From NCBI RefSeq assembly GCF_003790525.1, contig NZ_CP033635.1: a stretch of 64,000 nt of DNA; one strand, given 5' to 3'. Of the stretch, positions 1 to 15,630 are shown one piece after another (the first letter of the stretch is position 1; each line of letters starts with the position of its first letter). Source of the stretch: Escherichia coli. GTDB lineage: Bacteria; Pseudomonadota; Gammaproteobacteria; Enterobacterales; Enterobacteriaceae. The notes below the pieces were generated by a model. It saw nothing but the letters and a program-made list of their open reading frames with translations, did no database searches and had not been told where the DNA came from. Made by a program: the position numbers and the translations under genes.

Positions 1-1443
1 CCGAACATCGCTAACCGCAACAAAGGCGGGCGGCGCAAACCGAAAAAGAATTTTTTCAGCGACGAAGCCATCGAAAAGCTGGAGCAGATTTTCTTTGAGC
101 AGTCTTTCGACTATCAGTTGCACTGGTATCGCGCCGGGCTTGAGCACCGCATCCGCGATATCCTGAAATCCCGCCAGATTGGCGCAACGTTTTATTTTTC
201 CCGCGAGGCGCTGCTGCGTGCCCTGAAAACCGGTCATAACCAGATTTTTCTGTCGGCCAGTAAAACGCAGGCGTATGTGTTCCGCGAATACATCATCGCC
301 TTTGCCCGGCTGGTTGACGTTGACCTGACCGGTGACCCGATTGTCCTGGGCAATAACGGCGCAAAACTGATTTTTCTCGGCACCAACTCCAACACCGCGC
401 AGAGCCATAACGGCGACCTGTACGTCGACGAGATTTTCTGGATCCCGAATTTTCAGGTACTGCGTAAGGTGGCATCAGGTATGGCCTCACAGAGTCACCT
501 GCGCTCGACCTATTTCTCCACCCCGTCCACGCTGGCGCACGACGCCTACCCGTTCTGGTCGGGTGAACTGTTTAACCGGGGACGCGCCAGCGCCGCCGAA
601 CGCGTGGAAATCGACGTCAGTCATAACGCCCTTGCCGGTGGGCTTCTCTGTGCGGACGGCCAGTGGCGGCAGATTGTCACCATTGAGGACGCCCTGAAAG
701 GCGGCTGCACGCTGTTCGACATTGAGCAGCTCAAACGCGAAAACAGCGCCGACGATTTTAAAAACCTGTTCATGTGTGAATTTGTTGACGACAAGGCGTC
801 GGTATTCCCGTTCGAGGAGCTGCAACGCTGCATGGTCGACACGCTGGAAGAATGGGAAGACTATGCGCCGTTTGCCGCCAATCCGTTCGGCTCCCGCCCG
901 GTATGGATTGGTTACGACCCGTCACACCGTGGCGACAGCGCCGGATGCGTGGTGCTGGCACCGCCGGTGGTGGCCGGAGGTAAATTCAGAATACTTGAGC
1001 GTCACCAGTGGAAAGGCATGGACTTTGCCACTCAGGCGGAATCCATCCGCAAACTCACCGAAAAATACAACGTCGAATACATCGGAATTGATGCCACCGG
1101 CCTCGGTGTCGGCGTGTTCCAGCTCGTGCGCTCGTTCTATCCCGCCGCGCGCGATATCCGCTACACGCCGGAAATGAAAACCGCAATGGTGCTCAAGGCA
1201 AAAGACGTCATCCGCCGTGGCTGTCTGGAATATGACGTCAGCGCCACCGACATCACCAGCTCGTTCATGGCTATCCGCAAGACCATGACCAGCAGCGGAC
1301 GCAGCGCCACCTATGAGGCCAGCCGTAGCGAGGAAGCCAGCCACGCCGACCTCGCCTGGGCGACCATGCACGCCCTGTTAAATGAGCCACTCACCGCCGG
1401 TATCAGCACCCCGCTGACATCCACCATTCTGGAGTTTTACTGA
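1..1443 (+). CDS. P: Terminase large (ATPase) subunit, P2 gpP-like, 5' end cut by the window edge
   Basis: Frame 1 is open from nt 1. The track start at 118 is a TTG codon inside the ORF. The stop overlaps the portal start (TGATG at 1441-1445), and the gene sits upstream of the portal gene and cos as in the P2 PQ operon. Confidence 0.85.
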   Translation, partial: PNIANRNKGGRRKPKKNFFSDEAIEKLEQIFFEQSFDYQLHWYRAGLEHRIRDILKSRQIGATFYFSREALLRALKTGHNQIFLSASKTQAYVFREYIIAFARLVDVDLTGDPIVLGNNGAKLIFLGTNSNTAQSHNGDLYVDEIFWIPNFQVLRKVASGMASQSHLRSTYFSTPSTLAHDAYPFWSGELFNRGRASAAERVEIDVSHNALAGGLLCADGQWRQIVTIEDALKGGCTLFDIEQLKRENSADDFKNLFMCEFVDDKASVFPFEELQRCMVDTLEEWEDYAPFAANPFGSRPVWIGYDPSHRGDSAGCVVLAPPVVAGGKFRILERHQWKGMDFATQAESIRKLTEKYNVEYIGIDATGLGVGVFQLVRSFYPAARDIRYTPEMKTAMVLKAKDVIRRGCLEYDVSATDITSSFMAIRKTMTSSGRSATYEASRSEEASHADLAWATMHALLNEPLTAGISTPLTSTILEFY

Positions 1444-2477
1444 TGAGCAAGAAAAAAGGGAAAACACCGCAACCTGCGGCAAAAAAAATGACCGCCAGCG
1501 CCCCGAAAATGGAGGCATTCACCTTTGGTGAGCCGGTGCCGGTACTCGACCGCCGTGACATTCTGGATTACGTCGAGTGCATCAGTAACGGCAGATGGTA
1601 TGAGCCACCAGTCAGCTTTACCGGTCTGGCAAAAAGCCTGCGTGCTGCCGTGCATCACAGCTCACCGATTTACGTCAAACGTAACATTCTGGCCTCAACG
1701 TTTATCCCACACCCGTGGCTTTCTCAGCAGGATTTCAGCCGCTTTGTGCTGGATTTTCTGGTATTCGGTAATGCGTTTCTGGAAAAGCGTTACAGCACCA
1801 CCGGTAAGGTCATCAGACTGGAAACCTCACCGGCAAAATATACCCGCCGTGGCGTGGAGGAGGATGTTTACTGGTGGGTGCCGTCCTTCAACGAGCCGAC
1901 ACCTTTCGCGCCCGGCTCCGTGTTTCACCTGCTGGAGCCGGATATTAATCAGGAGCTGTACGGTCTGCCGGAATATCTCAGCGCCCTTAACTCTGCCTGG
2001 CTGAATGAGTCGGCCACGCTGTTCCGCCGCAAGTATTACGAAAACGGCGCTCATGCCGGATATATCATGTACGTCACTGATGCCGTGCAGGATCGCAACG
2101 ATATCGAAATGCTTCGCGAAAACATGGTGAAGTCGAAAGGCCGCAACAACTTTAAAAACCTGTTTCTCTATGCCCCGCAGGGGAAAGCTGACGGCATTAA
2201 AATTATCCCGCTCAGTGAAGTGGCAACGAAGGACGATTTTTTTAATATCAAAAAAGCCAGCGCCGCTGACCTGCTGGACGCGCACCGCATCCCCTTTCAG
2301 TTGATGGGCGGCAAGCCGGAGAACGTCGGGTCGCTGGGTGATATTGAGAAAGTAGCAAAGGTCTTTGTCCGCAATGAGCTTATCCCGTTACAGGACAGGA
2401 TCCGCGAGATAAACGGCTGGCTCGGTCAGGAGGTCATCCGATTTAAAAACTACTCACTGGACACTGACAACGGCTGA
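1443..2477 (+). CDS. Q: Portal (capsid-packaging) protein, P2 gpQ-like, 344 aa
   Basis: Length and position match gpQ (last gene before cos). It is coupled to P and followed by a hairpin plus T-run. Confidence 0.85.
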   Translation: MSKKKGKTPQPAAKKMTASAPKMEAFTFGEPVPVLDRRDILDYVECISNGRWYEPPVSFTGLAKSLRAAVHHSSPIYVKRNILASTFIPHPWLSQQDFSRFVLDFLVFGNAFLEKRYSTTGKVIRLETSPAKYTRRGVEEDVYWWVPSFNEPTPFAPGSVFHLLEPDINQELYGLPEYLSALNSAWLNESATLFRRKYYENGAHAGYIMYVTDAVQDRNDIEMLRENMVKSKGRNNFKNLFLYAPQGKADGIKIIPLSEVATKDDFFNIKKASAADLLDAHRIPFQLMGGKPENVGSLGDIEKVAKVFVRNELIPLQDRIREINGWLGQEVIRFKNYSLDTDNG

Positions 2478-2482
2478 ACATC

Positions 2483-2504
2483 GCCGCCTGCGGGCGGCTT
2501 TTTT
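2483..2504 (+). terminator. Rho-independent terminator of the P-Q operon
   Basis: GCCGCC (2483-2488) pairs with GGCGGC (2493-2498) around loop TGCG, followed by TTTTTT (2499-2504), 6 nt after the Q stop. Confidence 0.8.
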
Positions 2505-2646
2505 ACACCCCGTCATCACGCCCTCACACGTTCGCCACTGTACAAAACACCCCGCAGACACACCAACGCCCCGGCAGGCCGACTAAACGCCATCACGACG
2601 CGCTCAGACGCTGAAAAAATAAAATCAGCACCACCGCCAGCGCGCA

Positions 2647-2665
2647 GTGCTTTCCCCGCCTCGCC
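2647..2665 (-). other. cos: cos cohesive-end sequence (P2 type)
   Basis: GTGCTTTCCCCGCCTCGCC is the reverse complement of GGCGAGGCGGGGAAAGCAC, the 19-nt P2 cohesive end as I recall it. It lies just downstream of Q as in P2. Confidence 0.8.
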
Positions 2666-2892
2666 CGCCCGCTTCATGGGTCGGTTTTGATGCAATTCCA
2701 AAAGCCGTCCAAACTCTCTTAGGCTAAATGTCCAACGAGAAAATAGTTCTTTGAATGTGAATGCATTTTAATGCAGAGTTATGCCCAGCATTTTTGTACA
2801 CTTCGATGTATCAAATGCGCTGCAAACGATCAAATATGGATGTTTTATCAAGCATCCCCCAAAAGATATTTACATCATCCCATGAGGTTAAG

Positions 2893-3966
2893 ATGGATAA
2901 CAAAATCGTAGAAATTGAGACAAATAAGCTTGATTTTGACCCTAAAAACCCACGTTTCTTTCGTCTCAATGATGCCAGTAACGCTGCAACAGTCATTGAG
3001 GAAATGTTAGATGACGAAAGTGTCCACGATCTAATGCTATCAATCGGTCAGCAAGGTTACTTTCCTGGAGAACCTTTATTGGCAGTAAAAAGCAATGGAA
3101 ACTACATCGTGGTTGAGGGAAACAGACGCTTAGCTGCTGTAAAGTTGCTCAATGGAGATCTGCTTCCTCCAAAAAGAAAACTTAAAGGTGTGCAAGAAAT
3201 CATTGATGATACTACCAATAAACCTAAGAAGCTTCCCTGCATCATTTATGAAAACCGAGAGGATGTACTGAGATATATCGGTTATCGTCATATAACTGGG
3301 GTCAAAGAATGGGACTCATTATCTAAAGCCAAATACCTTAAAGAGTTATGTGATACTTTTTATTCACATGAGCCTAAAGAGATAGTATTAAAAAATCTGG
3401 CTCGTGAGATTGGGAGTAAACCACATTATGTTGCAACACTTCTCACTGCACTGAACTTATATGAAGTCGCGCATGACCATGAGTTTTTTAATTTACCCAT
3501 GAAGGCTTCTGACGTGGAATTTTCATATATAACCACAGCTTTGGGATATTCAAAAATCACAAACTGGTTAGGTCTACAGGATAAAAAGGATTTTTTAGAC
3601 CCAAATTTAAATGAAGAAAACCTTAAGCGTTTATTCTCTTGGTTTTTTGTGCCTGACCAACAAGGTAGAACCATCATCGGTGAGTCTCGAAGAATAAAAG
3701 ATATTGCAGCAGTGGTTGAGAAACCCGAAGCAATTGAAATTCTCATGAAAAGTTCAAACTTGGATGAAGCATATCTATATACCAGCGGAGAAAGAGAAGC
3801 ATTAGATAAAGCACTAAACGCAGCTAGTGTTAAATTAAGAGTAGTTTGGGATATGCTACTTAAAGCTAAAGAATTAACATTAGAGCATGAAGAGGCTGCA
3901 TCTGAAATTTTTGAGATGTCAAAAAATATTAGAAATCAGATCAGAAGCAAAAGGGAGGATGATTGA
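2893..3966 (+). CDS. ParB/Srx N-terminal-domain protein (357 aa), cargo gene 1
   Basis: Start chosen at ATG 2893 with GAGG at 2885-2888. Motifs KLDFDPKNPRF and YIVVEGNRRLAAVKLL resemble ParB box I/II (GxxR arginine patch), with a helical C-terminal half. Codon usage is AT-rich, unlike the flanking phage genes. Confidence 0.7.
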   Translation: MDNKIVEIETNKLDFDPKNPRFFRLNDASNAATVIEEMLDDESVHDLMLSIGQQGYFPGEPLLAVKSNGNYIVVEGNRRLAAVKLLNGDLLPPKRKLKGVQEIIDDTTNKPKKLPCIIYENREDVLRYIGYRHITGVKEWDSLSKAKYLKELCDTFYSHEPKEIVLKNLAREIGSKPHYVATLLTALNLYEVAHDHEFFNLPMKASDVEFSYITTALGYSKITNWLGLQDKKDFLDPNLNEENLKRLFSWFFVPDQQGRTIIGESRRIKDIAAVVEKPEAIEILMKSSNLDEAYLYTSGEREALDKALNAASVKLRVVWDMLLKAKELTLEHEEAASEIFEMSKNIRNQIRSKREDD

Positions 3967-3970
3967 GATT

Positions 3971-4996
3971 ATGATTACAAATCTTGATTCAATGCCTTCT
4001 AATGAGCCTTATTTATGGGCTGATTATATTGAGATATTGGCCTTAACTAATATCGACAGGTCATTCAGTCGAGGAGACCTATATAGCACACTGCAAGCTC
4101 AACCCGAAGCAGTACTAGCTGAAACAGATGAAGCAGAAGAAGAGGGCGTTTATGATGTTGATGATGAAAATGATACGCCTGTACGCAAGAGAACAAAACG
4201 AAGTGTTAGTCGAGCATATACTGACAGAAAGTGGAGCTATGCGATAGGCTTCATACGACAACGCATTGATTTATTTGGGGATAGTTACCCTTTTACTTTA
4301 TCAGAAGACAACGATACTGTAGAGTTACGTGATATATCAGAAAAGCCACTGGAACATTTAGAAAGACTATATTTAGCTTTACTAATCTGTGCTAACATAA
4401 AATATGTCAACATAATGAGCAGAAGAGAGATAACGCGCAGTTTTGAACTAATTAGTTTACCTATTTTTGAAAGCCTAATGCCTAGCGGTAGCATAATAAA
4501 AGCATGCTGGGCTTCTGGTGGTCAAGCGGCCCCTTACACTGGAACTCTATATAATAAATTTAAGAGTATTGCTTCCGATATCCGTTGCACAGCGAACTTC
4601 AAAGAACGAGATTTCAGTCGAGGAAATAGTGGTGACGGAGGCCTTGACATAATTGCCTGGCATCCAATGGGAGATCAACGAGATGCCATCCCTATTTCTT
4701 TTGTTCAGTGTGGCTGTTCTCAAGAAGAGTGGGAAGCGAAGCAGCTTGAGGCCTCACCTGCGATGCTCTACAGTAAATTCCCCGTAGCTCACCGATGGGC
4801 AACTTATTATTTCTTACCTCAAGATCTACGATGGATAGATGGTGAGTGGGCGCATAAAAATAAGTTAGGCGATGCTATTTTTGTTGATCGCCTAAGATTA
4901 ATCAATTTAACCAGAGCATCTGATAATATTGATCACAGTCAAAATATTAGCTATCTAGATATCATCCTTGATCCTTCCAGCGCGATCGCTGCTTAA
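3971..4996 (+). CDS. PD-(D/E)xK-like (Mrr-type) putative nuclease with an acidic N-terminal region (341 aa; alternative start 3959), cargo gene 2
   Basis: AAGGGAGG at 3951-3958 lies inside the end of gene 1. ATG 3959 overlaps the gene 1 TGA (3964-3966) and ATG 3971 follows it. FELISLPIFESL ... GNSGDGGLDIIAW ... ISFVQCGCS resembles the Mrr catalytic core E..D..QxK, but with Gly in place of Lys. Confidence 0.55.
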   Translation: MITNLDSMPSNEPYLWADYIEILALTNIDRSFSRGDLYSTLQAQPEAVLAETDEAEEEGVYDVDDENDTPVRKRTKRSVSRAYTDRKWSYAIGFIRQRIDLFGDSYPFTLSEDNDTVELRDISEKPLEHLERLYLALLICANIKYVNIMSRREITRSFELISLPIFESLMPSGSIIKACWASGGQAAPYTGTLYNKFKSIASDIRCTANFKERDFSRGNSGDGGLDIIAWHPMGDQRDAIPISFVQCGCSQEEWEAKQLEASPAMLYSKFPVAHRWATYYFLPQDLRWIDGEWAHKNKLGDAIFVDRLRLINLTRASDNIDHSQNISYLDIILDPSSAIAA

Positions 4997-5931
4997 TCCC
5001 ATAAATCTGGAAGGTTTCTAGCAACCGCCTCAAACAATGGAGGCGGTACTGCATTACCTACCACAGTATATTTCATATTAATAGAAGCCCGTTCAGTTTC
5101 TGGGAAAATTAAATCCCCAAAACCTTGTAAAATAGCAGCCTCTCGATAGCTAAACCTACGAGCTGGTGCATCCGAAGTAAATTGCCACTTATCAGGTCCC
5201 AATTTTTCTAATGTTGGACTTATTGGATGTAGAGGCATATGTCTAGGATTTGCAACAATTGTTTTAGATATCTGATCCCAATCTTGCCTACGGTTTCGCG
5301 ATAGATAATACCAATGAAAATCGGCGTCATAAAACTCGCCAACAGGCCAAACAGGCATATGCCCAATAGCATCACGAATTGTGGAATATGGTGTCAAACC
5401 ATCACCATGTGTTGGTTTTGGAAATTTGTATGTAATACCGTAGTCCTTTCGTATTCCTACGATAAAGATTCGCTTCCTATCTTGGGATACCCCATAATGG
5501 GACGCATTCAGAATTTGCGAGCTTACTGTATAACCTGCTTCTTCGAAAACTTTGAATTGATCCTTTAATAAATGCTCAAAGTTACGCCTTACCATACCAG
5601 AGACATTCTCTACAATGAATGCTTTTGGCTTAATTTTACTCAAAGCACGGGCAAACTCTAAATATAGTGTATTAATCTTTCTATCTGCCTTCCTTGCCCC
5701 ACCTTGACTAAATCCTTGGCAAGGATAGCATCCGATGAGCAACTCAGCAGAAGGGAACGACTGGAGCCCTGAGATATCGCCCAAAATGTAGTCAGTTTCA
5801 GGATGGTTTTCTAAGTAAACGTCCCTTGCGTAAGGCAAAATATCATTTGCCATAAGCACATTGAAACCTGCGTTCAAAACTCCCGCATCAGAACCACCAC
5901 ATCCAGAAAAAAGTGAAACTACAGTTGGCAT
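4993..5931 (-). CDS. DNA (cytosine-5) methyltransferase, 312 aa, cargo gene 3
   Basis: All canonical C5-MTase motifs are readable: FSGCGG (I), PCQGFS (IV), ENV (VI), QDRKRIFIVG (VIII), RRFSYREAAILQGF (IX-like) and GNAVPPPL (X). AGGAGG at 5937-5942 lies 5 nt upstream of the ATG. Confidence 0.92.
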   Translation of the reverse strand: MPTVVSLFSGCGGSDAGVLNAGFNVLMANDILPYARDVYLENHPETDYILGDISGLQSFPSAELLIGCYPCQGFSQGGARKADRKINTLYLEFARALSKIKPKAFIVENVSGMVRRNFEHLLKDQFKVFEEAGYTVSSQILNASHYGVSQDRKRIFIVGIRKDYGITYKFPKPTHGDGLTPYSTIRDAIGHMPVWPVGEFYDADFHWYYLSRNRRQDWDQISKTIVANPRHMPLHPISPTLEKLGPDKWQFTSDAPARRFSYREAAILQGFGDLIFPETERASINMKYTVVGNAVPPPLFEAVARNLPDLWD

Positions 5932-5957
5932 TGACCCCTCCTAAAAACCGACCGCGT

Positions 5958-5963
5958 ATTATA
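5958..5963 (-). promoter_or_regulatory. Candidate -10 hexamer (TATAAT) for the methyltransferase gene
   Basis: A perfect TATAAT on the minus strand lies ~27 nt upstream of the ATG. The -35 region is poor (CTTTTC). Confidence 0.35.
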
Positions 5964-6173
5964 GCGAAACACCCCGTTGGGAAAAGCTAGATTTTGCCAA
6001 GTCTTGATATTCTCACGTTTTAGTAGTTGTGGCCATCTTTAACGAGAAAAAGATAAAATTGACTTCTCATTAATTTTCAATAGGTTTAATTGTAAGCTCA
6101 AACTAACGCCTCGCGACACTCGTTATTCAACCCCGCCAGCCCTGAAAACAAGTTTCACGACTGGCGGCGTTCT

Positions 6174-6380
6174 CTATCGTCTGCGTTGTGGTGGCGCAAC
6201 TCTGGACTGACCGATATGGTTAAACCGCCCGTAATTATCCCGGACTATTTCGGCACACCCGACCAGCTCATCGGGCGTCAGATTTTCGTTGACCATAATC
6301 CGCTGTAAACGCTGAACAATAGCCATCAGCTTGATATTTTTAGTTTTATGGTGCGGTATCTCGCCTGGTATTCTGTGCAT
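6174..6380 (-). CDS. Small hypothetical protein (68 aa), last gene of the early/replication operon
   Basis: Its ATG overlaps the upstream stop as TAATG at 6378-6382. No recognisable motif. Confidence 0.45.
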   Translation of the reverse strand: MHRIPGEIPHHKTKNIKLMAIVQRLQRIMVNENLTPDELVGCAEIVRDNYGRFNHIGQSRVAPPQRRR

Positions 6381-6832
6381 TATCCAAGCCACCCGTTTTG
6401 CTGTGCACGCTCCATCTGTTCATCTGAATAGTTCCATGCTCCATCCGTGGCAACCATTGCCCCGCCAGACATCCCCGTCTCTGGTTCATACATAACAGCA
6501 AGGCCGAGCTGATGCATAATTTCATGATTAATTCTGAATACCAGGCCACGCTCACTAAGTTCTTTCCAGTTCACAATCTCATATGCGCCTGTATTAAGCA
6601 GCTCAATACTTAGCAAGACATAATCTTCCAGCCAGTCTGACAGGTCAGTAACATCTGTTATCCGGGCTTCAACATTTCGCCCCGTATACACACCCTGCAC
6701 CCATTCATACAAAATCAACGTGTCCCCGCGCTCATAATTACGGTCATTTTTCCGGAACTCTGCACGTTTCTTTCCTTCCAGCACAAGGTCGAAATATTTT
6801 GCGTGCAGCTTTACCTCGTGAATTTTTGCCAT
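6380..6832 (-). CDS. ASCH/DUF3850-like domain protein with a C-terminal extension carrying an HExxH motif (150 aa)
   Basis: The N-terminus IHEVKLHAKYFDLVLEGKKRAEFRKNDRNYERGDTLILYEW fits the DUF3850 pattern as I recall it. HEIMH lies in the C-terminal part. The ATG overlaps the gpA stop (TAATG at 6830-6834). Confidence 0.6.
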   Translation of the reverse strand: MAKIHEVKLHAKYFDLVLEGKKRAEFRKNDRNYERGDTLILYEWVQGVYTGRNVEARITDVTDLSDWLEDYVLLSIELLNTGAYEIVNWKELSERGLVFRINHEIMHQLGLAVMYEPETGMSGGAMVATDGAWNYSDEQMERAQQNGWLG

Positions 6833-9117
6833 TATGTCCACTCCATTACTGTTGAGAATCCCGGCCACTCATCAGCGACCGGATACGTGAATTTTTTCCC
6901 GTCATAATTTACGGTCGCGCCACGCGCCAGCGCCTCAAGCTCCCATCGCTGCGGCCTGATACCGTTCTGAGCAAGGTCAACGCGGATACGGGTAATTTGC
7001 GTTCGTTCCGACCGGGTCAGTCTGGCCGATGGCGCTATTTCATGTGGTTTTAACGGGCTTCCGTTTCTCTGCTGACGATTTGGTGTTCTCAGTTCGTGTT
7101 TTAATGCACCTCTGAGCGCCCTCACGACCTCTGGCTCATTCCATTCGATAACACCGTCATCAACCAGATTAAGCACGGCTGCGGCATGTTCATAAGGTGT
7201 GGGAGCCGGTAACGAAGTATCACTGCCGGTGAGCTTTCCACAGTTATTGACAGGACTCCGAGGCGCGGCGATGCCGCTTTTTAAAGTCAAAGGCTCAACG
7301 ACCGGAACTTTCGGCACAATGCGCCAGTCCGTCGTTCTGGTGATATGAATATGACGCGCGCCGAGATGCGGCGCGTAAATACCGACCACTCTCTCGACTT
7401 CTTCCTCGTACTCGTTAACGTCACTCGACGGGCTACGGGCAACCCTGACAGTCTGACAATCGCGCGGGACATTTGCCCCACCCTGCGCGCTGATATACAA
7501 CGCAAAATCACCACTGTCTGCGGCAGCGCGAGCAGCCTCGACGCGTTCGTCAAACTCATCAGCAATACTGACGCCGCGAGGTAATTTGCGTAGTTCACGG
7601 TAAGCCCCCATTGTCGGTAGGCCAACCGTTTTAAATTGCGGAATGCGCCACGTTGACGCCCATGCGGTAACAGCCGCGGCAGTGTCTTTCAGCGGCCTGC
7701 CGGTATCGTTATCGAGCTGACCATCCAGTGCATAGCCGTCGATGTTTTTTGAAATGTATTTCGCGATATACCCCGCAGCACCGCCCCGATTAAGGTGTTT
7801 TGCCTGAAAACGGTTTCGCGCGGCTCCTCTTTCGTCGCCATCCTCTTTGAGCGCATAGCGACGCATGATTTCGATAATCTGGTTACGCTGGCGCGAATTA
7901 CAAAAAAGCATCATATGCCAGTGCGGCGTTCCGTCGTGGTGTGGCTCGACGACACGCAAACCGTAGACCTGTAAATCATTATCCTTGAATGCCGTGCGCA
8001 TCAGGCTCCAGATACGGCAGAGATAACGCTGCGCATCCTTTGGATTAAATGCCTCATCGTTCCAGCCGTGATTAAGCTGCACGGTTTTACTTTCGCCTTT
8101 TCCTACCTGACGTGTCGGGTGATACTTTGACGGCGCGGTCAGCGTGATAAACATCCCCACATCACCCTCTGCAGCGGCGTAACGCTCAATACCGGCAATG
8201 GTGTTCATCAGCTCCATCCGGCGAATTTCAGGATTAGAAATACTGCCCATCACCTTACTGATAAGGTCGATGCGCTCGCCGGTTTCCCTGTTTTCAAGGT
8301 CACACGATTTAAGAAATTCCAGATTTGCCTGGCGGCGCGCACGCACATCACGAATGGCATGTTTACTGGCATAAGGTGAACGGTCTTTATTGACCTCCCC
8401 GACAGCAATCAGTAACGCCTCATGCCAGCGCATACGCTGGCCTTTAAGCTGTCTAATCCACCACTCATCGTTAAACAGGCGGGCAATGGCAGAATATGCC
8501 TGCCTCGTGGTCATCTGCCCTTTACGGTATTTTCTCCAGTACAGCGGGGAAATATTGAAAGCACGTGCAGCGCCAGCAACATGACCATACAGGTGAGCCT
8601 GCGCCTCATCCGTAAACAGCGATTCTTTTTCGCCATGGGCATCCACCCAGGCATCGCAGAGTTCCTCATACATCATGAAAAGCTGCGATGAGATACGGGC
8701 GGCAAACTTTTTCAGCTCCTTGTCATTCATTCCCGGCAGGCGCGCATAGTGGTCACGCTCTGCCAGAAACAGCAACGACGCGTCGGTGTTCATTTCATGG
8801 CGCTGATTCACACGCTCAATGCGCGGCCATAAACGACGCTGAAAAGTGGATGTGAGGAAATAAAACCCGTGCACCGGGCTTTTATTGCGCCGGATGTAGT
8901 CATAGCGTGAAGTAAACAGCGAGCGCAAAAAGTAAGGCAGGCGGTTAATCGTGGATAAAACACCTTGCACCTGACGCATCTCATCACGTGTAAGGGGTCT
9001 TTCGCGCCCGACGGCCTCGCGTGGCGCGTTCCATGCATAAGCACCGGTAAACATCTTACCGGTGCCTGCGGCAAATGCTGACGGAGGGACAAAACGCCCG
9101 GAGGCTTTAACGGCCAT
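6832..9117 (-). CDS. A: Replication initiation endonuclease, P2 gpA-like (761 aa from ATG 9117; the ORF is open to 9159)
   Basis: HUH-type motif EPHHDGTPHWHMMLF and tyrosine motif AGYIAKYISKN are present. The N-terminus MAVKASGRFVPPSAF and the length match my memory of P2 A. Confidence 0.9.
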   Translation of the reverse strand: MAVKASGRFVPPSAFAAGTGKMFTGAYAWNAPREAVGRERPLTRDEMRQVQGVLSTINRLPYFLRSLFTSRYDYIRRNKSPVHGFYFLTSTFQRRLWPRIERVNQRHEMNTDASLLFLAERDHYARLPGMNDKELKKFAARISSQLFMMYEELCDAWVDAHGEKESLFTDEAQAHLYGHVAGAARAFNISPLYWRKYRKGQMTTRQAYSAIARLFNDEWWIRQLKGQRMRWHEALLIAVGEVNKDRSPYASKHAIRDVRARRQANLEFLKSCDLENRETGERIDLISKVMGSISNPEIRRMELMNTIAGIERYAAAEGDVGMFITLTAPSKYHPTRQVGKGESKTVQLNHGWNDEAFNPKDAQRYLCRIWSLMRTAFKDNDLQVYGLRVVEPHHDGTPHWHMMLFCNSRQRNQIIEIMRRYALKEDGDERGAARNRFQAKHLNRGGAAGYIAKYISKNIDGYALDGQLDNDTGRPLKDTAAAVTAWASTWRIPQFKTVGLPTMGAYRELRKLPRGVSIADEFDERVEAARAAADSGDFALYISAQGGANVPRDCQTVRVARSPSSDVNEYEEEVERVVGIYAPHLGARHIHITRTTDWRIVPKVPVVEPLTLKSGIAAPRSPVNNCGKLTGSDTSLPAPTPYEHAAAVLNLVDDGVIEWNEPEVVRALRGALKHELRTPNRQQRNGSPLKPHEIAPSARLTRSERTQITRIRVDLAQNGIRPQRWELEALARGATVNYDGKKFTYPVADEWPGFSTVMEWT

Positions 9118-9382
9118 ATGAGCCAAAAGCCTCTGAACAACGCCTGCTGAGTTGCTCAACCTGCGCGTTTAAATCAGCAAAAGACTTTGCGCTTCCGGTC
9201 AGAATATCGTGATGCATCAGGCCGGAAACGAGCTGGCTTAATTTCGGGTAATAACCAACCACCGCCAGCCATTCCTGACCGGCGTTTTTACCGCTTTCAG
9301 CTCTCTTTTTCTCGTGGAGAATAAACTGAAAGCTGTCACTGGTAACGACATAACGTTCGCCAATTTCAATACGAATACTCAT
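9107..9382 (-). CDS. Small P2-type early-operon protein, unknown function (91 aa)
   Basis: ATGA overlap with the upstream gene at 9379-9382. Position is equivalent to the P2 orf80-83 group. Confidence 0.6.
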   Translation of the reverse strand: MSIRIEIGERYVVTSDSFQFILHEKKRAESGKNAGQEWLAVVGYYPKLSQLVSGLMHHDILTGSAKSFADLNAQVEQLSRRCSEAFGSYGR

Positions 9383-9603
9383 GCCGTTCTCCGGTAATGT
9401 TTGTTTTTTGCTTCAAAGACTGACTGACAGGAAACACAACGCGTGGCTGACGGATAAGCCGCACGACGGGCAGCAGGTATTGGCGCGTCACACTCTTCGC
9501 AAACCAGCGCAGAAGCACCGCAATGTTTTACCCTTGCCGCGTTAATCTGGCGCTCCAGTAATTCAGCCTGTTGTTCCTGAATAAAATCTACGTTGTCCGG
9601 CAT
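9379..9603 (-). CDS. TraR/DksA-type C4 zinc-finger protein (74 aa)
   Basis: CEECDAPIP...RCVSCQ forms a CxxC-N17-CxxC motif. TAATG coupling at 9601-9605. Confidence 0.75.
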   Translation of the reverse strand: MPDNVDFIQEQQAELLERQINAARVKHCGASALVCEECDAPIPAARRAAYPSATRCVSCQSVFEAKNKHYRRTA

Positions 9604-9905
9604 TACCAGTTCCTTTTGTCGTTAAGGTTTTTAAATTCATCAGCGCAATAGCTGGCGATTTCTGTCGTTAATTTCGTCAGTTCATCCACGGAGGAGATTT
9701 GCTTGTGAAACACAGCGCGTTTAACAAGTAAATTGACCACATCAGACAGGAGGTTTAATTCGTTCTGATAAATCGCGATAACAGACTCAGTTATTTCGCG
9801 TTTTTCTTTATCAAGACCAAGTTGAATAAGAGACAAATCGCCATTTTTCATAACGGCGATTTTTAGGGCGTTATTCAGTAATACAACTGAACGAGAACAG
9901 GACAT
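9603..9905 (-). CDS. Hypothetical early-operon protein (100 aa)
   Basis: ATG 9905 overlaps the upstream TGA (TGATG). No recognisable motif. Confidence 0.5.
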   Translation of the reverse strand: MSCSRSVVLLNNALKIAVMKNGDLSLIQLGLDKEKREITESVIAIYQNELNLLSDVVNLLVKRAVFHKQISSVDELTKLTTEIASYCADEFKNLNDKRNW

Positions 9906-10129
9906 CAAAGCACCTCCCCGCGAGACAATCCGATATTGTGAAATTTTTCCGACTCCTGACTGAGCAGCTCGACTATCTCCACGCGGGATAACTCCGCCTT
10001 TGTGATGTGGCGAATCATGGCGTCAAGATGAGAAGAAAAGCGCGTCGCTGCGTCGGCCTGTGCTTCGGTTCTGGCCTGTTGCAGCAGTAATGCGTATTTA
10101 CCGCACTGATTTTCAGAAACTGTATGCAT
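9905..10129 (-). CDS. Hypothetical early-operon protein (74 aa)
   Basis: Compact ORF in the operon between B and A. No recognisable motif. Confidence 0.5.
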
Positions 10130-10192
10130 GACTTTCTCCAGGCAAAAAGAAGCCCCGCACGATTAAGTGCGTTAAAAACTCTGGTTAATTAC

Positions 10193-10693
10193 TTAATGCA
10201 GATATTGCTCTGGTTTTACCGACGTCAGAATTGTCGGTGCATACTCAAACAGGCTGAATAATTCACGTAATGCACGGAATAAAGCATCACGCCAGTAACA
10301 TGATTCTTCATTAATTCGCCAGTATGGCTGGTTGAATTCTTTTTCAGTCAGTCGTGCGTGCATAAATAAAGTGCGACGCTGACTGACTGTTAAAAAACTA
10401 ATATATGCATACTCACTTGCGCCAACCTGACGGCGTTTTGAGAATGCGCCACGCAATTCATCAATTGCACAAACCAGTCGTTCACGTTCGACGTCGTTCA
10501 TTTCTTCAAAACGCATCGTTGCGTGACGCTGTTTTAACTGTGCATGAAAGCAAACCGTTAGCCGTTCGCGCTCCATCATCTGATTATAATAATCACATGT
10601 ATCCTGCCAGCGAGGGACGGCAAGATGCTTGCCAATTATCCGGCGCATAGCTGCTGGCTGTTTTTCAACGAGATTAAGCGTCATCACTGTCAT
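10193..10693 (-). CDS. B: Replication protein B (helicase-loader-like), P2 gpB-like, 166 aa
   Basis: Same length and position as P2 B. The sequence MTVMTLNLVEKQPAAMRRIIGKHLAVPRWQD matches my memory of gpB. Confidence 0.8.
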   Translation of the reverse strand: MTVMTLNLVEKQPAAMRRIIGKHLAVPRWQDTCDYYNQMMERERLTVCFHAQLKQRHATMRFEEMNDVERERLVCAIDELRGAFSKRRQVGASEYAYISFLTVSQRRTLFMHARLTEKEFNQPYWRINEESCYWRDALFRALRELFSLFEYAPTILTSVKPEQYLH

Positions 10694-10860
10694 TTCCAGC
10701 CCCTCCGGCTTTTCAGAAAGGTCAGAGCCTTTTTTAACGGACTCTGTTTTTTGGTGCGGATAATGATTCCCTTACGCCCCTTACCGTGGGTGATGGTGAA
10801 GTCAATCGCCCTGGGGCTTTCGTTACGCAGTAACTGAGCAATACAACGCGGTTCACTCAT
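10690..10860 (-). CDS. Small protein between cox and B (56 aa from ATG 10860)
   Basis: The ATG lies 2 nt after the cox stop. The stop overlaps the B start. Confidence 0.5.
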   Translation of the reverse strand: MSEPRCIAQLLRNESPRAIDFTITHGKGRKGIIIRTKKQSPLKKALTFLKSRRGWK

Positions 10861-10862
10861 AA

Positions 10863-11135
10863 TCACAACCCCATCCACAAAAGCCATGCATCACGCTGTT
10901 CAACTGGTCGGTTATAAAACGCCTCTCGTACAGCGCGATTAAACTCTGGAATGAAAACCCACTTCTCACCGACACGAGCGTTCGGCTTACTTGGATCACG
11001 AAGCTCAATAACTGGCAACTTATTCTCTTTTACCATCTTGACTACAGCCGTTTCTGGCTTACCAAGTAACTCTGCAAACTTAACCGTATGTACCGCATCA
11101 ATCGGGTACTGAATCACATAGTCATTGACTTCCAT
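10863..11135 (-). CDS. cox: Cox-like excisionase / early repressor (90 aa)
   Basis: First gene of the early operon, divergent from C. The C-terminal ...WVFIPEFN...RDAWLLWMGL resembles the P2 Cox tail (...DGWLMWLGL). Confidence 0.75.
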   Translation of the reverse strand: MEVNDYVIQYPIDAVHTVKFAELLGKPETAVVKMVKENKLPVIELRDPSKPNARVGEKWVFIPEFNRAVREAFYNRPVEQRDAWLLWMGL

Positions 11136-11258
11136 TGATTAGCCCTTTTTGCTTTCGTGTTACCCTTATTAGATCCAGTCCCTTCTAGGTCGCACCTGTC
11201 CTTTCTAGGGACTGGCTAACACACTCAAAAGGTCACCAATACACAACCTTTTGACGGG

Positions 11259-11287
11259 AATATAAGTCACCAATAGGTTACTGTCAA
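11259..11287 (-). promoter_or_regulatory. Early promoter (Pe-like) reading toward cox
   Basis: On the minus strand: TTGACA (11287-11282), a 17-nt spacer, then TATATT (11264-11259). GTCACCAATA direct repeats at 11232-11241 and 11266-11275 flank the -10. Confidence 0.65.
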
Positions 11288-11581
11288 ATGCAGACATTCG
11301 AAAAACTGAAAGCGATTAGGAAAGCAGAAGGCTTAACACAGGCGAAATTCAGCGAAATTAGCGGGATAGCTCTAGGAACAGTCAAAAATTACGAAAGTGG
11401 GCATAAAGACCCTGGTCTCAGCATCGTTATGCGAGTCACAAATACGCCTTTATTTAAAAAATATACGCTCTGGTTAATGACTGGTGATACGTCACCACAA
11501 GCTGGTCAGATCGCGCCGGCTCTCGCACACATTGGGCAAAAACCAACAGAATCAGACCACTCCGAAAAACAGACTGGTTAA
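11288..11581 (+). CDS. C: Immunity repressor, P2 C-like HTH protein (97 aa)
   Basis: An XRE-type HTH is present (LTQAKFSEISGIALGTVKNYESG). The C-terminal KYTLWLMTG...GQIAPALAHIGQ matches the conserved P2 C tail as I recall it. Confidence 0.8.
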   Translation: MQTFEKLKAIRKAEGLTQAKFSEISGIALGTVKNYESGHKDPGLSIVMRVTNTPLFKKYTLWLMTGDTSPQAGQIAPALAHIGQKPTESDHSEKQTG

Positions 11582-11650
11582 CACTCTATAAACATTACAT
11601 TTTCACCATTTGTTACCAAGATGGTGAATACAGCGTCAGAGGGCTTTCTT

Positions 11651-12631
11651 ATGTCAATTAAGAAGCTCGATGATGGACGCTATGAAGTGGACATTAGACC
11701 TCGCGGTCGCGACGGAAAACGCATCCGCAGGAAATTTGAAAGAAAAGCTGAGGCTGTAGCATTTGAGCGATACACAATCGCCTACGCCAGCCAGAAAGAA
11801 TGGGCAGGTCAGCGAGCAGATCGCAGAACTTTGAGTGAGTTGCTGAACATCTGGTGGAAATATCACGGGCAAAACCACGAGCATGGAACAAAAGAGTTTA
11901 ATCATCTGCTCAAAACCATCAGCGGCATAGGTGATATACCAGTGAGCCGGATGAGCAAAAGAGCTTTGATGGATTATCGTTCCATGCGACTACGTGATGG
12001 TATCAGTGCCGCAACGATAAACCGTGACATGTACCGATTATCCGGCATGTTCACAAAATTAATTCAATTGGATGAATTTTCCGGGCAACACCCAATTCAC
12101 GGACTGCCGCCACTGGCGGAGGCCAACCCTGAAATGACGTTCCTGGAAAAAGCAGAAATCGAAAAACTGTTAAATGTTTTGGATGGTGATGACTTACTTG
12201 TCGCACTTTTATGTCTGAGCACTGGAGGAAGATGGACGGAAGTTGCCACGCTAAAACCAGCACAGATTACAAATTGCAGGGTTACCTTCCTGAAAACCAA
12301 AAACGGTAAAAAGCGAACCGTGCCGATTTCTGAGGAACTGGAGAAAAAAGTTAAAGAGGAGGCCAGCGCTAAATTATTCAAAGTTGATTATGAGAAGTTT
12401 TGCGGGATTTTACGCAGAGTGAAGCCAGATATACCACCCAATCAGGCAACCCACATCCTGCGGCATACATTCGCAAGCCATTTCATGATGAATGGGGGCA
12501 ATATAATCGCACTGCAACAGATTCTGGGACATGCGAGCATTCAGCAGACGATGGCCTATGCGCACCTTGCGCCTGACTACCTGCAAAATGCCGTCGCGCT
12601 GAATCCTCTAAAAGGCGGAGTGACGTTATAA
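11651..12631 (+). CDS. int: Tyrosine integrase, P2 Int-like (326 aa from ATG 11651)
   Basis: The N-terminus MSIKKLDDGRYEVDIRPRGRDGKRIRRKF parallels P2 Int. The catalytic HILRHTFASHF ... LGHASIQQTMAYAHL (R-H-R-Y) is present. Confidence 0.9.
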   Translation: MSIKKLDDGRYEVDIRPRGRDGKRIRRKFERKAEAVAFERYTIAYASQKEWAGQRADRRTLSELLNIWWKYHGQNHEHGTKEFNHLLKTISGIGDIPVSRMSKRALMDYRSMRLRDGISAATINRDMYRLSGMFTKLIQLDEFSGQHPIHGLPPLAEANPEMTFLEKAEIEKLLNVLDGDDLLVALLCLSTGGRWTEVATLKPAQITNCRVTFLKTKNGKKRTVPISEELEKKVKEEASAKLFKVDYEKFCGILRRVKPDIPPNQATHILRHTFASHFMMNGGNIIALQQILGHASIQQTMAYAHLAPDYLQNAVALNPLKGGVTL

Positions 12632-15544: not shown

Positions 15545-15630
15545 TGTAGGCAGGATAAGGCGTTTACGCCGCATCCGGCATTTGAGCAGGATGCCTGATG
15601 CGACGCTGATAGCGTCTTATCAGGCCTACA
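15545..15630. repeat. REP/BIME element (two inverted REPs)
   Basis: GCAGGATAAGGCGTTTACGCCGCATCCGGCA and GCCTGATGCGACGCT...CTTATCAGGCCTACA. Confidence 0.85.

Follow-up and report, generated by a model that had tools for sequence, protein, structure and literature searches.

The stretch of DNA analysed here, called the window, covers 64,000 nucleotides (nt) of an Escherichia coli chromosome (assembly GCF_003790525.1, contig NZ_CP033635.1) with a P2-like (Wphi-type) prophage, and we studied a three-gene cassette of this prophage that resembles a restriction-modification (RM) system. Two of its genes lie on the plus strand: gene 1 (2893-3966) codes for a ParB-like protein of 357 amino acids (aa), and gene 2 (3971-4996) for a putative effector that is predicted to combine a winged helix with a PD-(D/E)xK-type restriction-endonuclease fold. 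The third gene, on the minus strand at 4993-5931, codes for a 312-aa M.HaeIII-like C5 cytosine DNA methyltransferase (WP_001143634), hereafter the methylase. The three genes are listed in the Wphi record as gp98, gp96 and mth, respectively. The cassette DNA is 99.5-100% identical to that of phage Wphi, E. coli SMS-3-5, E. coli W and about 100 other genomes, and its GC content is 35-44% compared with 52-60% in the flanks.

The methylase matches the Pfam family PF00145 at an E-value (E) of 1e-61 over residues 3-307 of its 312 residues. The motifs FSGCGG (I), PCQ (IV), ENV (VI), QDRKR (VIII), RE..QGF (IX) and GNAVPP (X) can be read directly in this order which, together with the end-to-end Pfam match, bears out a first-pass annotation of the DNA that had credited the protein with all C5-methylase motifs. 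That annotation had also described the variable region between motifs VIII and IX as short. At about 100 aa it is indeed slightly shorter than that of M.HaeIII, but this length is ordinary for small C5 methylases. The alignment with M.HaeIII, whose site is GGCC, is full-length and includes the target-recognition domain, with SRNR and R..LHP common to both proteins, and among 83 family members this domain is conserved as strongly as the catalytic core. As judged from this family-wide conservation and from the homology to the M.HaeIII domain, a single mark is probably written throughout the family, with GGm5CC (m5C, 5-methylcytosine) as the most likely prediction. Comparison with the allele of the second cassette version described below gave a ratio of non-synonymous to synonymous substitutions (dN/dS) of 0.04 for a dS of 0.33, and the methylase is thus under purifying selection. 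Its best PADLOC profile is DruM2 (E 1e-110, nearly full length); PD-Lambda-5_B is absent among the best 25 of the 63 PADLOC methylase matches listed. The frequencies of GGCC and of other 4-mer palindromes were uninformative as evidence of the target: over the window as a whole GGCC stands at 0.58, a depletion that the cassette itself does not show.

The convergent genes meet in a TTAA at 4993-4996 that holds both stop codons. Read from the bases, the plus-strand TAA occupies 4994-4996 and the minus-strand TAA is the complement of 4993-4995, exactly as first annotated; it is equally correct that no intergenic space and no terminator separate the two units, since the stops overlap and no terminator-like site was found at or near this junction. 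The arrangement is widespread: among 60 distinct junctions taken from viral contigs, 24 have stops that overlap by 4 nt and 57 have stops that overlap or lie at most 9 nt apart, while the 4-nt overlap is also seen in 11 of the 20 genome loci with an adjacent methylase described below. Stops that overlap or lie within 9 nt of each other leave no space for a terminator, and because this holds across the family, it is characteristic of the family and no peculiarity of the window.

The methylase gene is preceded by its own expression signals, both of which the first-pass annotation had located. The CCTCCT at 5937-5942 reads AGGAGG on the minus strand and forms a Shine-Dalgarno sequence 5 nt before the ATG (5931-5929), and the ATTATA at 5958-5963 reads TATAAT, a perfect -10 box placed 26 nt before the ATG. 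We compared 55 distinct methylase upstream regions: 46 of them have a TATAAT box at a distance of 24-28 nt upstream from the ATG and 48 at 21-28 nt, a Shine-Dalgarno-like sequence is present in 51, and the sequence further 5' of the box diverges freely. A consensus promoter scan called no promoter at the methylase because the -35 element is poor, so that the evidence for this promoter is its conservation and not the scan. A conserved hairpin just upstream of the -10 box, suspected in several loci, was rejected, as the window sequence folds no better than shuffled sequences (z -0.16).

The plus-strand open reading frame (ORF) that ends at 4996 has candidate starts at 3887, 3959 and 3971; judged from homologues, gene 2 most likely starts at 3971 (or else at 3959), in either case coupled to the stop of gene 1. 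Its structural model, which consists of a winged helix and a restriction-endonuclease fold, matches active restriction enzymes and nickases best. A set of acidic, Gln and Lys residues is invariant over 38 diverse gene-2 sequences, and the canonical catalytic Lys position is lacking (QCG). We obtained no match of gene 2 to known restriction-enzyme sequence families, and none to PADLOC models at E up to 10, PD-Lambda-5_B included. The gene-2 family is nevertheless large, with 1,479 representatives at 50% identity. Since none of the top 150 representatives is a fused ParB-gene 2 protein, a complex of the two proteins receives no Rosetta-stone support.

The RefSeq start of gene 1, at 2893, has a GAGG in front of it, and a longer ORF of 401 aa begins at 2761. 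The AlphaFold2 model (predicted local distance difference test, pLDDT, 88) has an N-terminal ParB/Srx nucleoside triphosphate (NTP)-binding fold, a helix-turn-helix (HTH) and a C-terminal helical region. Foldseek aligned the model with ParB bound to cytidine triphosphate or diphosphate (CTP or CDP), Noc and KorB at E of about 1e-5, over the NTP-binding domain and the HTH. Gene 1 has the features that define canonical ParB proteins, namely the N-terminal NTP-binding fold, the GxxR P-motif and the HTH. Its P-motif, GNRR, aligns with the GERR of ParB, and the Arg pair R78 and R79 is invariant; within the EGNRR of residues 75-79, Asn invariably replaces the Glu of GERR, and the residue two positions before it is always Glu. 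The gene 1 sequence scores under the Pfam (ParB_N) and TIGR cut-offs. PADLOC profiles returned PD-Lambda-5_A at E 1e-24, restricted to the N-terminal domain (residues 45-195 of the 401-aa ORF), and also PDC-M38A.

To assess how tightly the three genes travel together, we looked at their relatives in three collections. The methylase is carried by 139 of 5,426 complete E. coli genomes (about 2.6%), and the ParB/gene-2 pair accompanies it in all 139. The pair exists there in two versions, version 1, that of the window, in 103 carriers (methylase at least 99% identical in nucleotides) and version 2 in 36 (93%). Species-representative genomes scanned with a gene-2 alignment gave 24 loci in Gammaproteobacteria, Betaproteobacteria and one alphaproteobacterium (Enterobacterales, Methylomonas, Gallionella, Sulfuricella, Burkholderiales, Porticoccus and one Rhizobium metagenome-assembled genome). 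Every one of them has ParB followed by gene 2 as well as a C5 methylase, and in 20 this methylase is 60-85% identical to ours, directly adjacent and convergent. Nearly all loci show genes 1 and 2 overlapping or directly adjoining. Viral contigs were scanned with the methylase, which yielded 80 loci at 68-100% identity, of which 79 had enough flank to be assessed. Gene 2 adjoins the methylase in all 79 and is convergent with it in all but one, and ParB is present in all except two, where the contig ends first. Among four assessable remote relatives of gene 2, three (P0300, P0388 and P0330) have a ParB-sized gene and a PF00145 methylase, arranged co-directionally.

Two readings of the methylase had been proposed at the outset, one as the self-marking half of an RM-like system and the other as an independent anti-restriction methylase that was captured together with its neighbours. 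The strict linkage (24/24, 79/79, 139/139 and 3/4 remote relatives) and the predicted restriction-endonuclease fold of gene 2 support, on comparative and structural grounds, the former and disfavour the latter. Type II-like RM systems link a methylase gene to an endonuclease gene, and by the same counts and fold the cassette shows such a link between its methylase and its putative nuclease. It had also been argued that homologues of genes 1 and 2 usually occurring without an adjacent methylase would speak against the self-marking role; we saw the opposite, with a C5 methylase at every gene-2 locus of the genome scan.

A few loci depart from the common layout or context. In Variovorax, Hydrogenophaga, Pelomonas and the Rhizobium metagenome-assembled genome (loci L028-L031, at about 7915-12300 there), gene 2 is followed by a convergent 1,048-aa Type IIG restriction-methylase and then by a 395-aa C5 methylase, and in L028 the stops again overlap by 4 nt. 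The viral contig IMGVR_UViG_3300011875_000001 (L104) holds the only close methylase relative (70% identity) that has ParB and gene 2 downstream on the same strand. P0274, a remote gene-2 relative (L115/L116; E 1e-56 to the family profile), sits between a TamB-like gene and an SBF-type transporter gene. In Methylomonas defluvii (L015), the triad lies between two copies, in the same orientation, of an IS21-type insertion sequence (IS) at 2038-4396 and 9174-11532 of that locus, each with a 516-aa transposase and a 271-aa partner, and outside them are MFS-like transporter and TonB-dependent receptor genes; this arrangement looks like a composite transposon and not a prophage.

In the window, the cassette is flanked on the left by the genes of the terminase (plus strand, ending at 1443) and of the portal protein (1443-2477, plus strand), then by a terminator and by the cohesive-end sequence (cos) of P2-like phages, which marks the left edge of the cargo hotspot. 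The cos sequence at 2647-2665 reads GTGCTTTCCCCGCCTCGCC, which we take to be the reverse complement of the P2 cos overhang, and window position 2666 coincides with an end of the linear phage records OU784549 and Wphi. On the right lie a 72-aa ORF, a DUF3850/ASCH protein related to P2 orf91 (6380-6868, minus strand) and the replication protein gpA (6832-9159). With terminase, portal and cos on one side and the 72-aa ORF, DUF3850 and gpA on the other, the cassette occupies the cos-proximal cargo locus, which in P2 itself holds tin and old and which is documented in P2-like phages as a reservoir of anti-phage systems (PMC9122126; PMC9519451). The DUF3850/ASCH gene lies two genes away from the ParB-like gene, and fusions of a ParB fold with DUF3850 are frequent in phages according to a 2025 survey (PMC12704722). 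Here the gene is probably phage backbone, because P2-like phages with other cargo have the same gene. Beyond the prophage part, the window gave matches at the Rfam gathering score to naRNA4 (a repetitive extragenic palindromic, or REP-type, element; 15549-15626), SECIS_3 (39643-39701) and the small RNA ES036 (44787-44829), all of them ordinary features of the E. coli chromosome. The cyanobacterial HIP1 octamer GCGATCGC occurs at 4982-4989, in the 3' end of gene 2; with four copies in the 64-kb window, this is probably chance.

The two E. coli versions of the cassette were compared by blastn of the window against phage vB_EcoM-12474III, in which 1804-4051 is the counterpart of window 2704-4993; the version 2 pair is present in phages vB_EcoM-12474II-V. 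DNA homology runs to 2703, just past cos, and restarts at 4994, in the methylase stop. The segment between these points, 2704-4993, comprises the promoter region, gene 1 and gene 2 on the plus strand and is wholly different between the versions, cos and the methylase being homologous; the TTAA with the two stops is thus also the right-hand breakpoint. At the protein level, the versions share 32% identity in ParB, 25% in gene 2 and 98% in the methylase, and among viral contigs methylase identity does not follow the subtype of its partners. Given these identities and the breakpoints at cos and at the stop junction, the methylase behaves like a conserved anchor beside which a fast-evolving ParB/nuclease pair can be exchanged as a module, and the difference between versions looks like a clean module swap anchored on cos and the methylase gene.

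Natural disruptions of the cassette were also examined. IS5-family insertions break gene 2 in three E. coli strains, at two sites (window-equivalent about 3990-4400), and in a fourth strain IS2 sits upstream of gene 1 (about 2750). The methylase is intact in all four and has a full-length match in 139 of 139 genomes, a pattern that would be expected if gene 2 is the harmful half. As for the prophage itself, only 33 of the 103 version-1 carriers keep terminase and portal, and about 70 lack the terminase. Homology in the sampled carriers without terminase starts within the portal gene, at window 1617, and the three that were examined also have a truncated gpA. This suggests that the intact cassette persists in a small decayed prophage remnant, which is suggestive and no stronger because the carriers may be clonal.

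Taking these data together, we favour, with a probability of about 0.65, the view that 2893-3966, 3971-4996 and 4993-5931 form one three-gene RM-like defence or addiction module, carried as cargo in the tin/old hotspot of a P2-like prophage. Its methylase is most likely the self-marking half, as it is the conserved third gene of a ParB/nuclease/methylase cassette. Expressed from its own conserved promoter, it would methylate cytosine at position 5 in a short fixed site, probably GGCC or close to it, on host and prophage DNA alike and so mark them as self. Genes 1 and 2, translationally coupled, would jointly make up the restriction half. The ParB-like protein would bind DNA through its HTH, with its ParB-type NTP-binding domain serving as a clamp or switch, and gene 2 would read DNA with its winged helix and cut incoming unmarked DNA, such as that of phages, with its restriction-fold nuclease. 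Because the stops abut or overlap without a terminator, transcription of each convergent unit would have to run antisense into the other, which may balance nuclease against methylase. The first-pass annotation had raised this kind of tuning of the restriction-to-modification ratio, and it is plausible since the lack of an intergenic terminator is conserved.

Several observations weigh against such a module. The Glu of the ParB GERR motif is needed for CTP hydrolysis, and with Asn in its place gene 1 may have lost NTP hydrolysis; the protein may then bind NTP and not hydrolyse it, or be no switch at all. A nearly identical methylase serves two pairs that are only 25-32% identical to each other, which would be unusual if the nuclease half reads the same DNA sequence. 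In 4 of the 24 genome loci, those with the Type IIG enzyme, this enzyme and a different C5 methylase (41% identity) stand in place of the adjacent one, and P0274 is solitary, with neither ParB nor methylase within 5 kb, the only exception to the triad that we saw. Rousset et al. list both cassette versions among the cargos of the P2 hotspot, without a function, and we found no sign of the cassette among the systems that they tested. Our literature search, made with ParB and C5-methylase defence systems, the protein accessions and PDC-M38, found no description of the cassette and no experiment on it.

We also considered what else the three genes could do. They could be chiefly a selfish addiction module that stabilises the cassette and its prophage by post-segregational killing, loss of the methylase leaving the nuclease to attack an under-methylated chromosome. 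The intact cassette of the truncated remnants (about 70 of 103 carriers), the insertions found in gene 2 or upstream of gene 1 and never in the methylase, and the movement of a compact block into many contexts, the IS21-flanked copy included, would all fit this explanation. However, retention in the remnants may be a single event in one clonal lineage, and published work describes the locus as a hotspot of defence (PMC9122126, PMC9519451); addiction is moreover compatible with defence, as classical RM systems do both. We consider it unlikely that addiction is the main role. The invariant acidic, Gln and Lys constellation in the 38 diverse gene-2 sequences, the active restriction enzymes and nickases among its best structural matches, and an obligate pairing with a methylase, which in established RM logic is the hallmark of a toxic activity needing an antidote, all argue against a different possibility, namely that nothing is cut. 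In that case the ParB-like clamp and a winged-helix protein with a degenerate nuclease would read methylation in order to silence, partition or regulate DNA, or to exclude or repress incoming DNA uncut. The missing Lys at the canonical catalytic position of gene 2 (QCG), the change of the GERR Glu to Asn in gene 1, and the fact that the structures nearest to gene 1 (ParB, Noc and KorB) are DNA clamps and repressors and not nucleases are in its favour, and we judge it improbable.

Finally, the methylase might be an independent orphan, anti-restriction or epigenetic in function, that shields the phage from host restriction of the GGCC type and merely lies beside an unrelated ParB/nuclease system. 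Phage-borne orphan methylases are common; this one has its own promoter and Shine-Dalgarno sequence on the opposite strand, and the same allele type accompanies two very different ParB/gene-2 versions with a breakpoint exactly at its stop codon. However, gene 2 accompanied every methylase of the clade (68-100% identity) in the 139 E. coli genomes and the 79 assessable viral loci, no gene-2 locus of the genome scan is without a C5 methylase, and the linkage persists outside prophages and in other gene orders. An orphan of this kind is therefore improbable, and the self-marking half of a three-gene module remains the reading that we prefer.

The cassette shares parts of its design with several known systems. 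One is classical Type II RM with convergent genes, with the HaeIII system as the counterpart for the methylase: the C5 methylase of the cassette has the full set of motifs, a promoter of its own and a target-recognition domain related by homology to the one in M.HaeIII, and a restriction-fold gene stands tail to tail with it. Unlike in those systems, the restriction half of the cassette would consist of two proteins, one of them with a ParB-type NTP-binding fold, and this half diverges far faster than the methylase and has been swapped between versions; we know of no classical Type II enzyme that needs a ParB-fold NTP-binding protein. In Type I, Type III and McrBC systems, restriction is carried out by several subunits, and an NTP-binding subunit controls a PD-(D/E)xK nuclease. 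The predicted NTP-binding module of the cassette differs from theirs in having a ParB-type fold and not that of a helicase or AAA+ motor. A ParABS partition system is not supported, as no ParA-like ORF was found in window 1-12000 and no convincing parS-type palindrome within the cassette. Druantia type II combines DruM with DruF, DruG and the large helicase DruE. The likeness of the cassette to it is limited to the methylase, whose best profile is that of DruM, and no other Druantia gene is present; no large DruE-like or Druantia-sized ORF is present among the neighbours (portal, cos, 72-aa ORF and DUF3850).

The closest validated relative in design is PD-lambda-5, a prophage-borne E. coli system made of a ParB/HEPN protein and a methyltransferase, which gave broad phage protection in experiments (PMC9519451, Vassallo et al. 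2022) and which its authors described as an RM plus abortive infection (Abi) system compacted into a prophage version (PMC9519451). Both reside in E. coli prophages and pair a ParB N-terminal domain with a DNA methyltransferase. In PD-lambda-5, however, ParB is fused to the HEPN effector (about 450 aa), whereas the ParB of the cassette carries an HTH and a helical tail, and its restriction-fold effector is a separate protein. Gene 1 matches only about positions 1-160 of the roughly 450 of the PD-Lambda-5_A profile and gave no HEPN match in Pfam. With nothing but the ParB domain of gene 1 in common and an unrelated gene 2, the cassette is not a member of PD-lambda-5. ParB-fold sensors offer another comparison: in GmrSD, SspE, Menshen NsnA and DndB, a ParB/Srx-fold NTP-binding domain together with a nuclease effector judges DNA modification (PMC12065111). 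Their domains belong to the DUF262 or DndB branches of the fold, and several of them attack modified DNA or sense phosphorothioate. Gene 1, by contrast, has canonical ParB, Noc and KorB as its nearest structures and is accompanied by a C5 methylase of its own.

The genes themselves are not new, as they have been in GenBank since the Wphi record and the cassette has been catalogued. The new element is that they are recognised as part of a conserved and widespread ParB-nuclease-C5-methylase triad, one whose NTP-binding component is unusual and whose architecture is prone to swaps. More tentatively, and with considerable doubt, the cassette might be the first-described member of a widespread RM class (about 1,500 gene-2 clusters at 50% identity) in which the role of a helicase or AAA+ motor is taken by a ParB-type CTP/NTP clamp, which licenses the restriction-fold nuclease to act on DNA without a fixed m5C mark, the highly conserved methylase gene doubling as the homology arm with which phages swap fast-evolving ParB/nuclease modules at the hotspot. 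The ParB/CTPase fold is familiar from chromosome segregation, nucleoid occlusion and plasmid repression. If the RM-like reading is right, the same fold would also act as a nucleotide-controlled restriction subunit, and RM systems would gain a further mechanistic type, for which E. coli offers a simple model of three genes. The reading would explain the hypothetical phage families PHROG 3984 and 3694, with their roughly 1,500 gene-2 clusters, together with a locus of about 2.6% of complete E. coli genomes. Carriers such as E. coli W, SMS-3-5 and the O145:H28 outbreak strains would then hold an extra m5C methylome and a barrier to transformation and phages, and mcrBC+/mrr+ K-12 hosts would probably not allow the cassette to be cloned.

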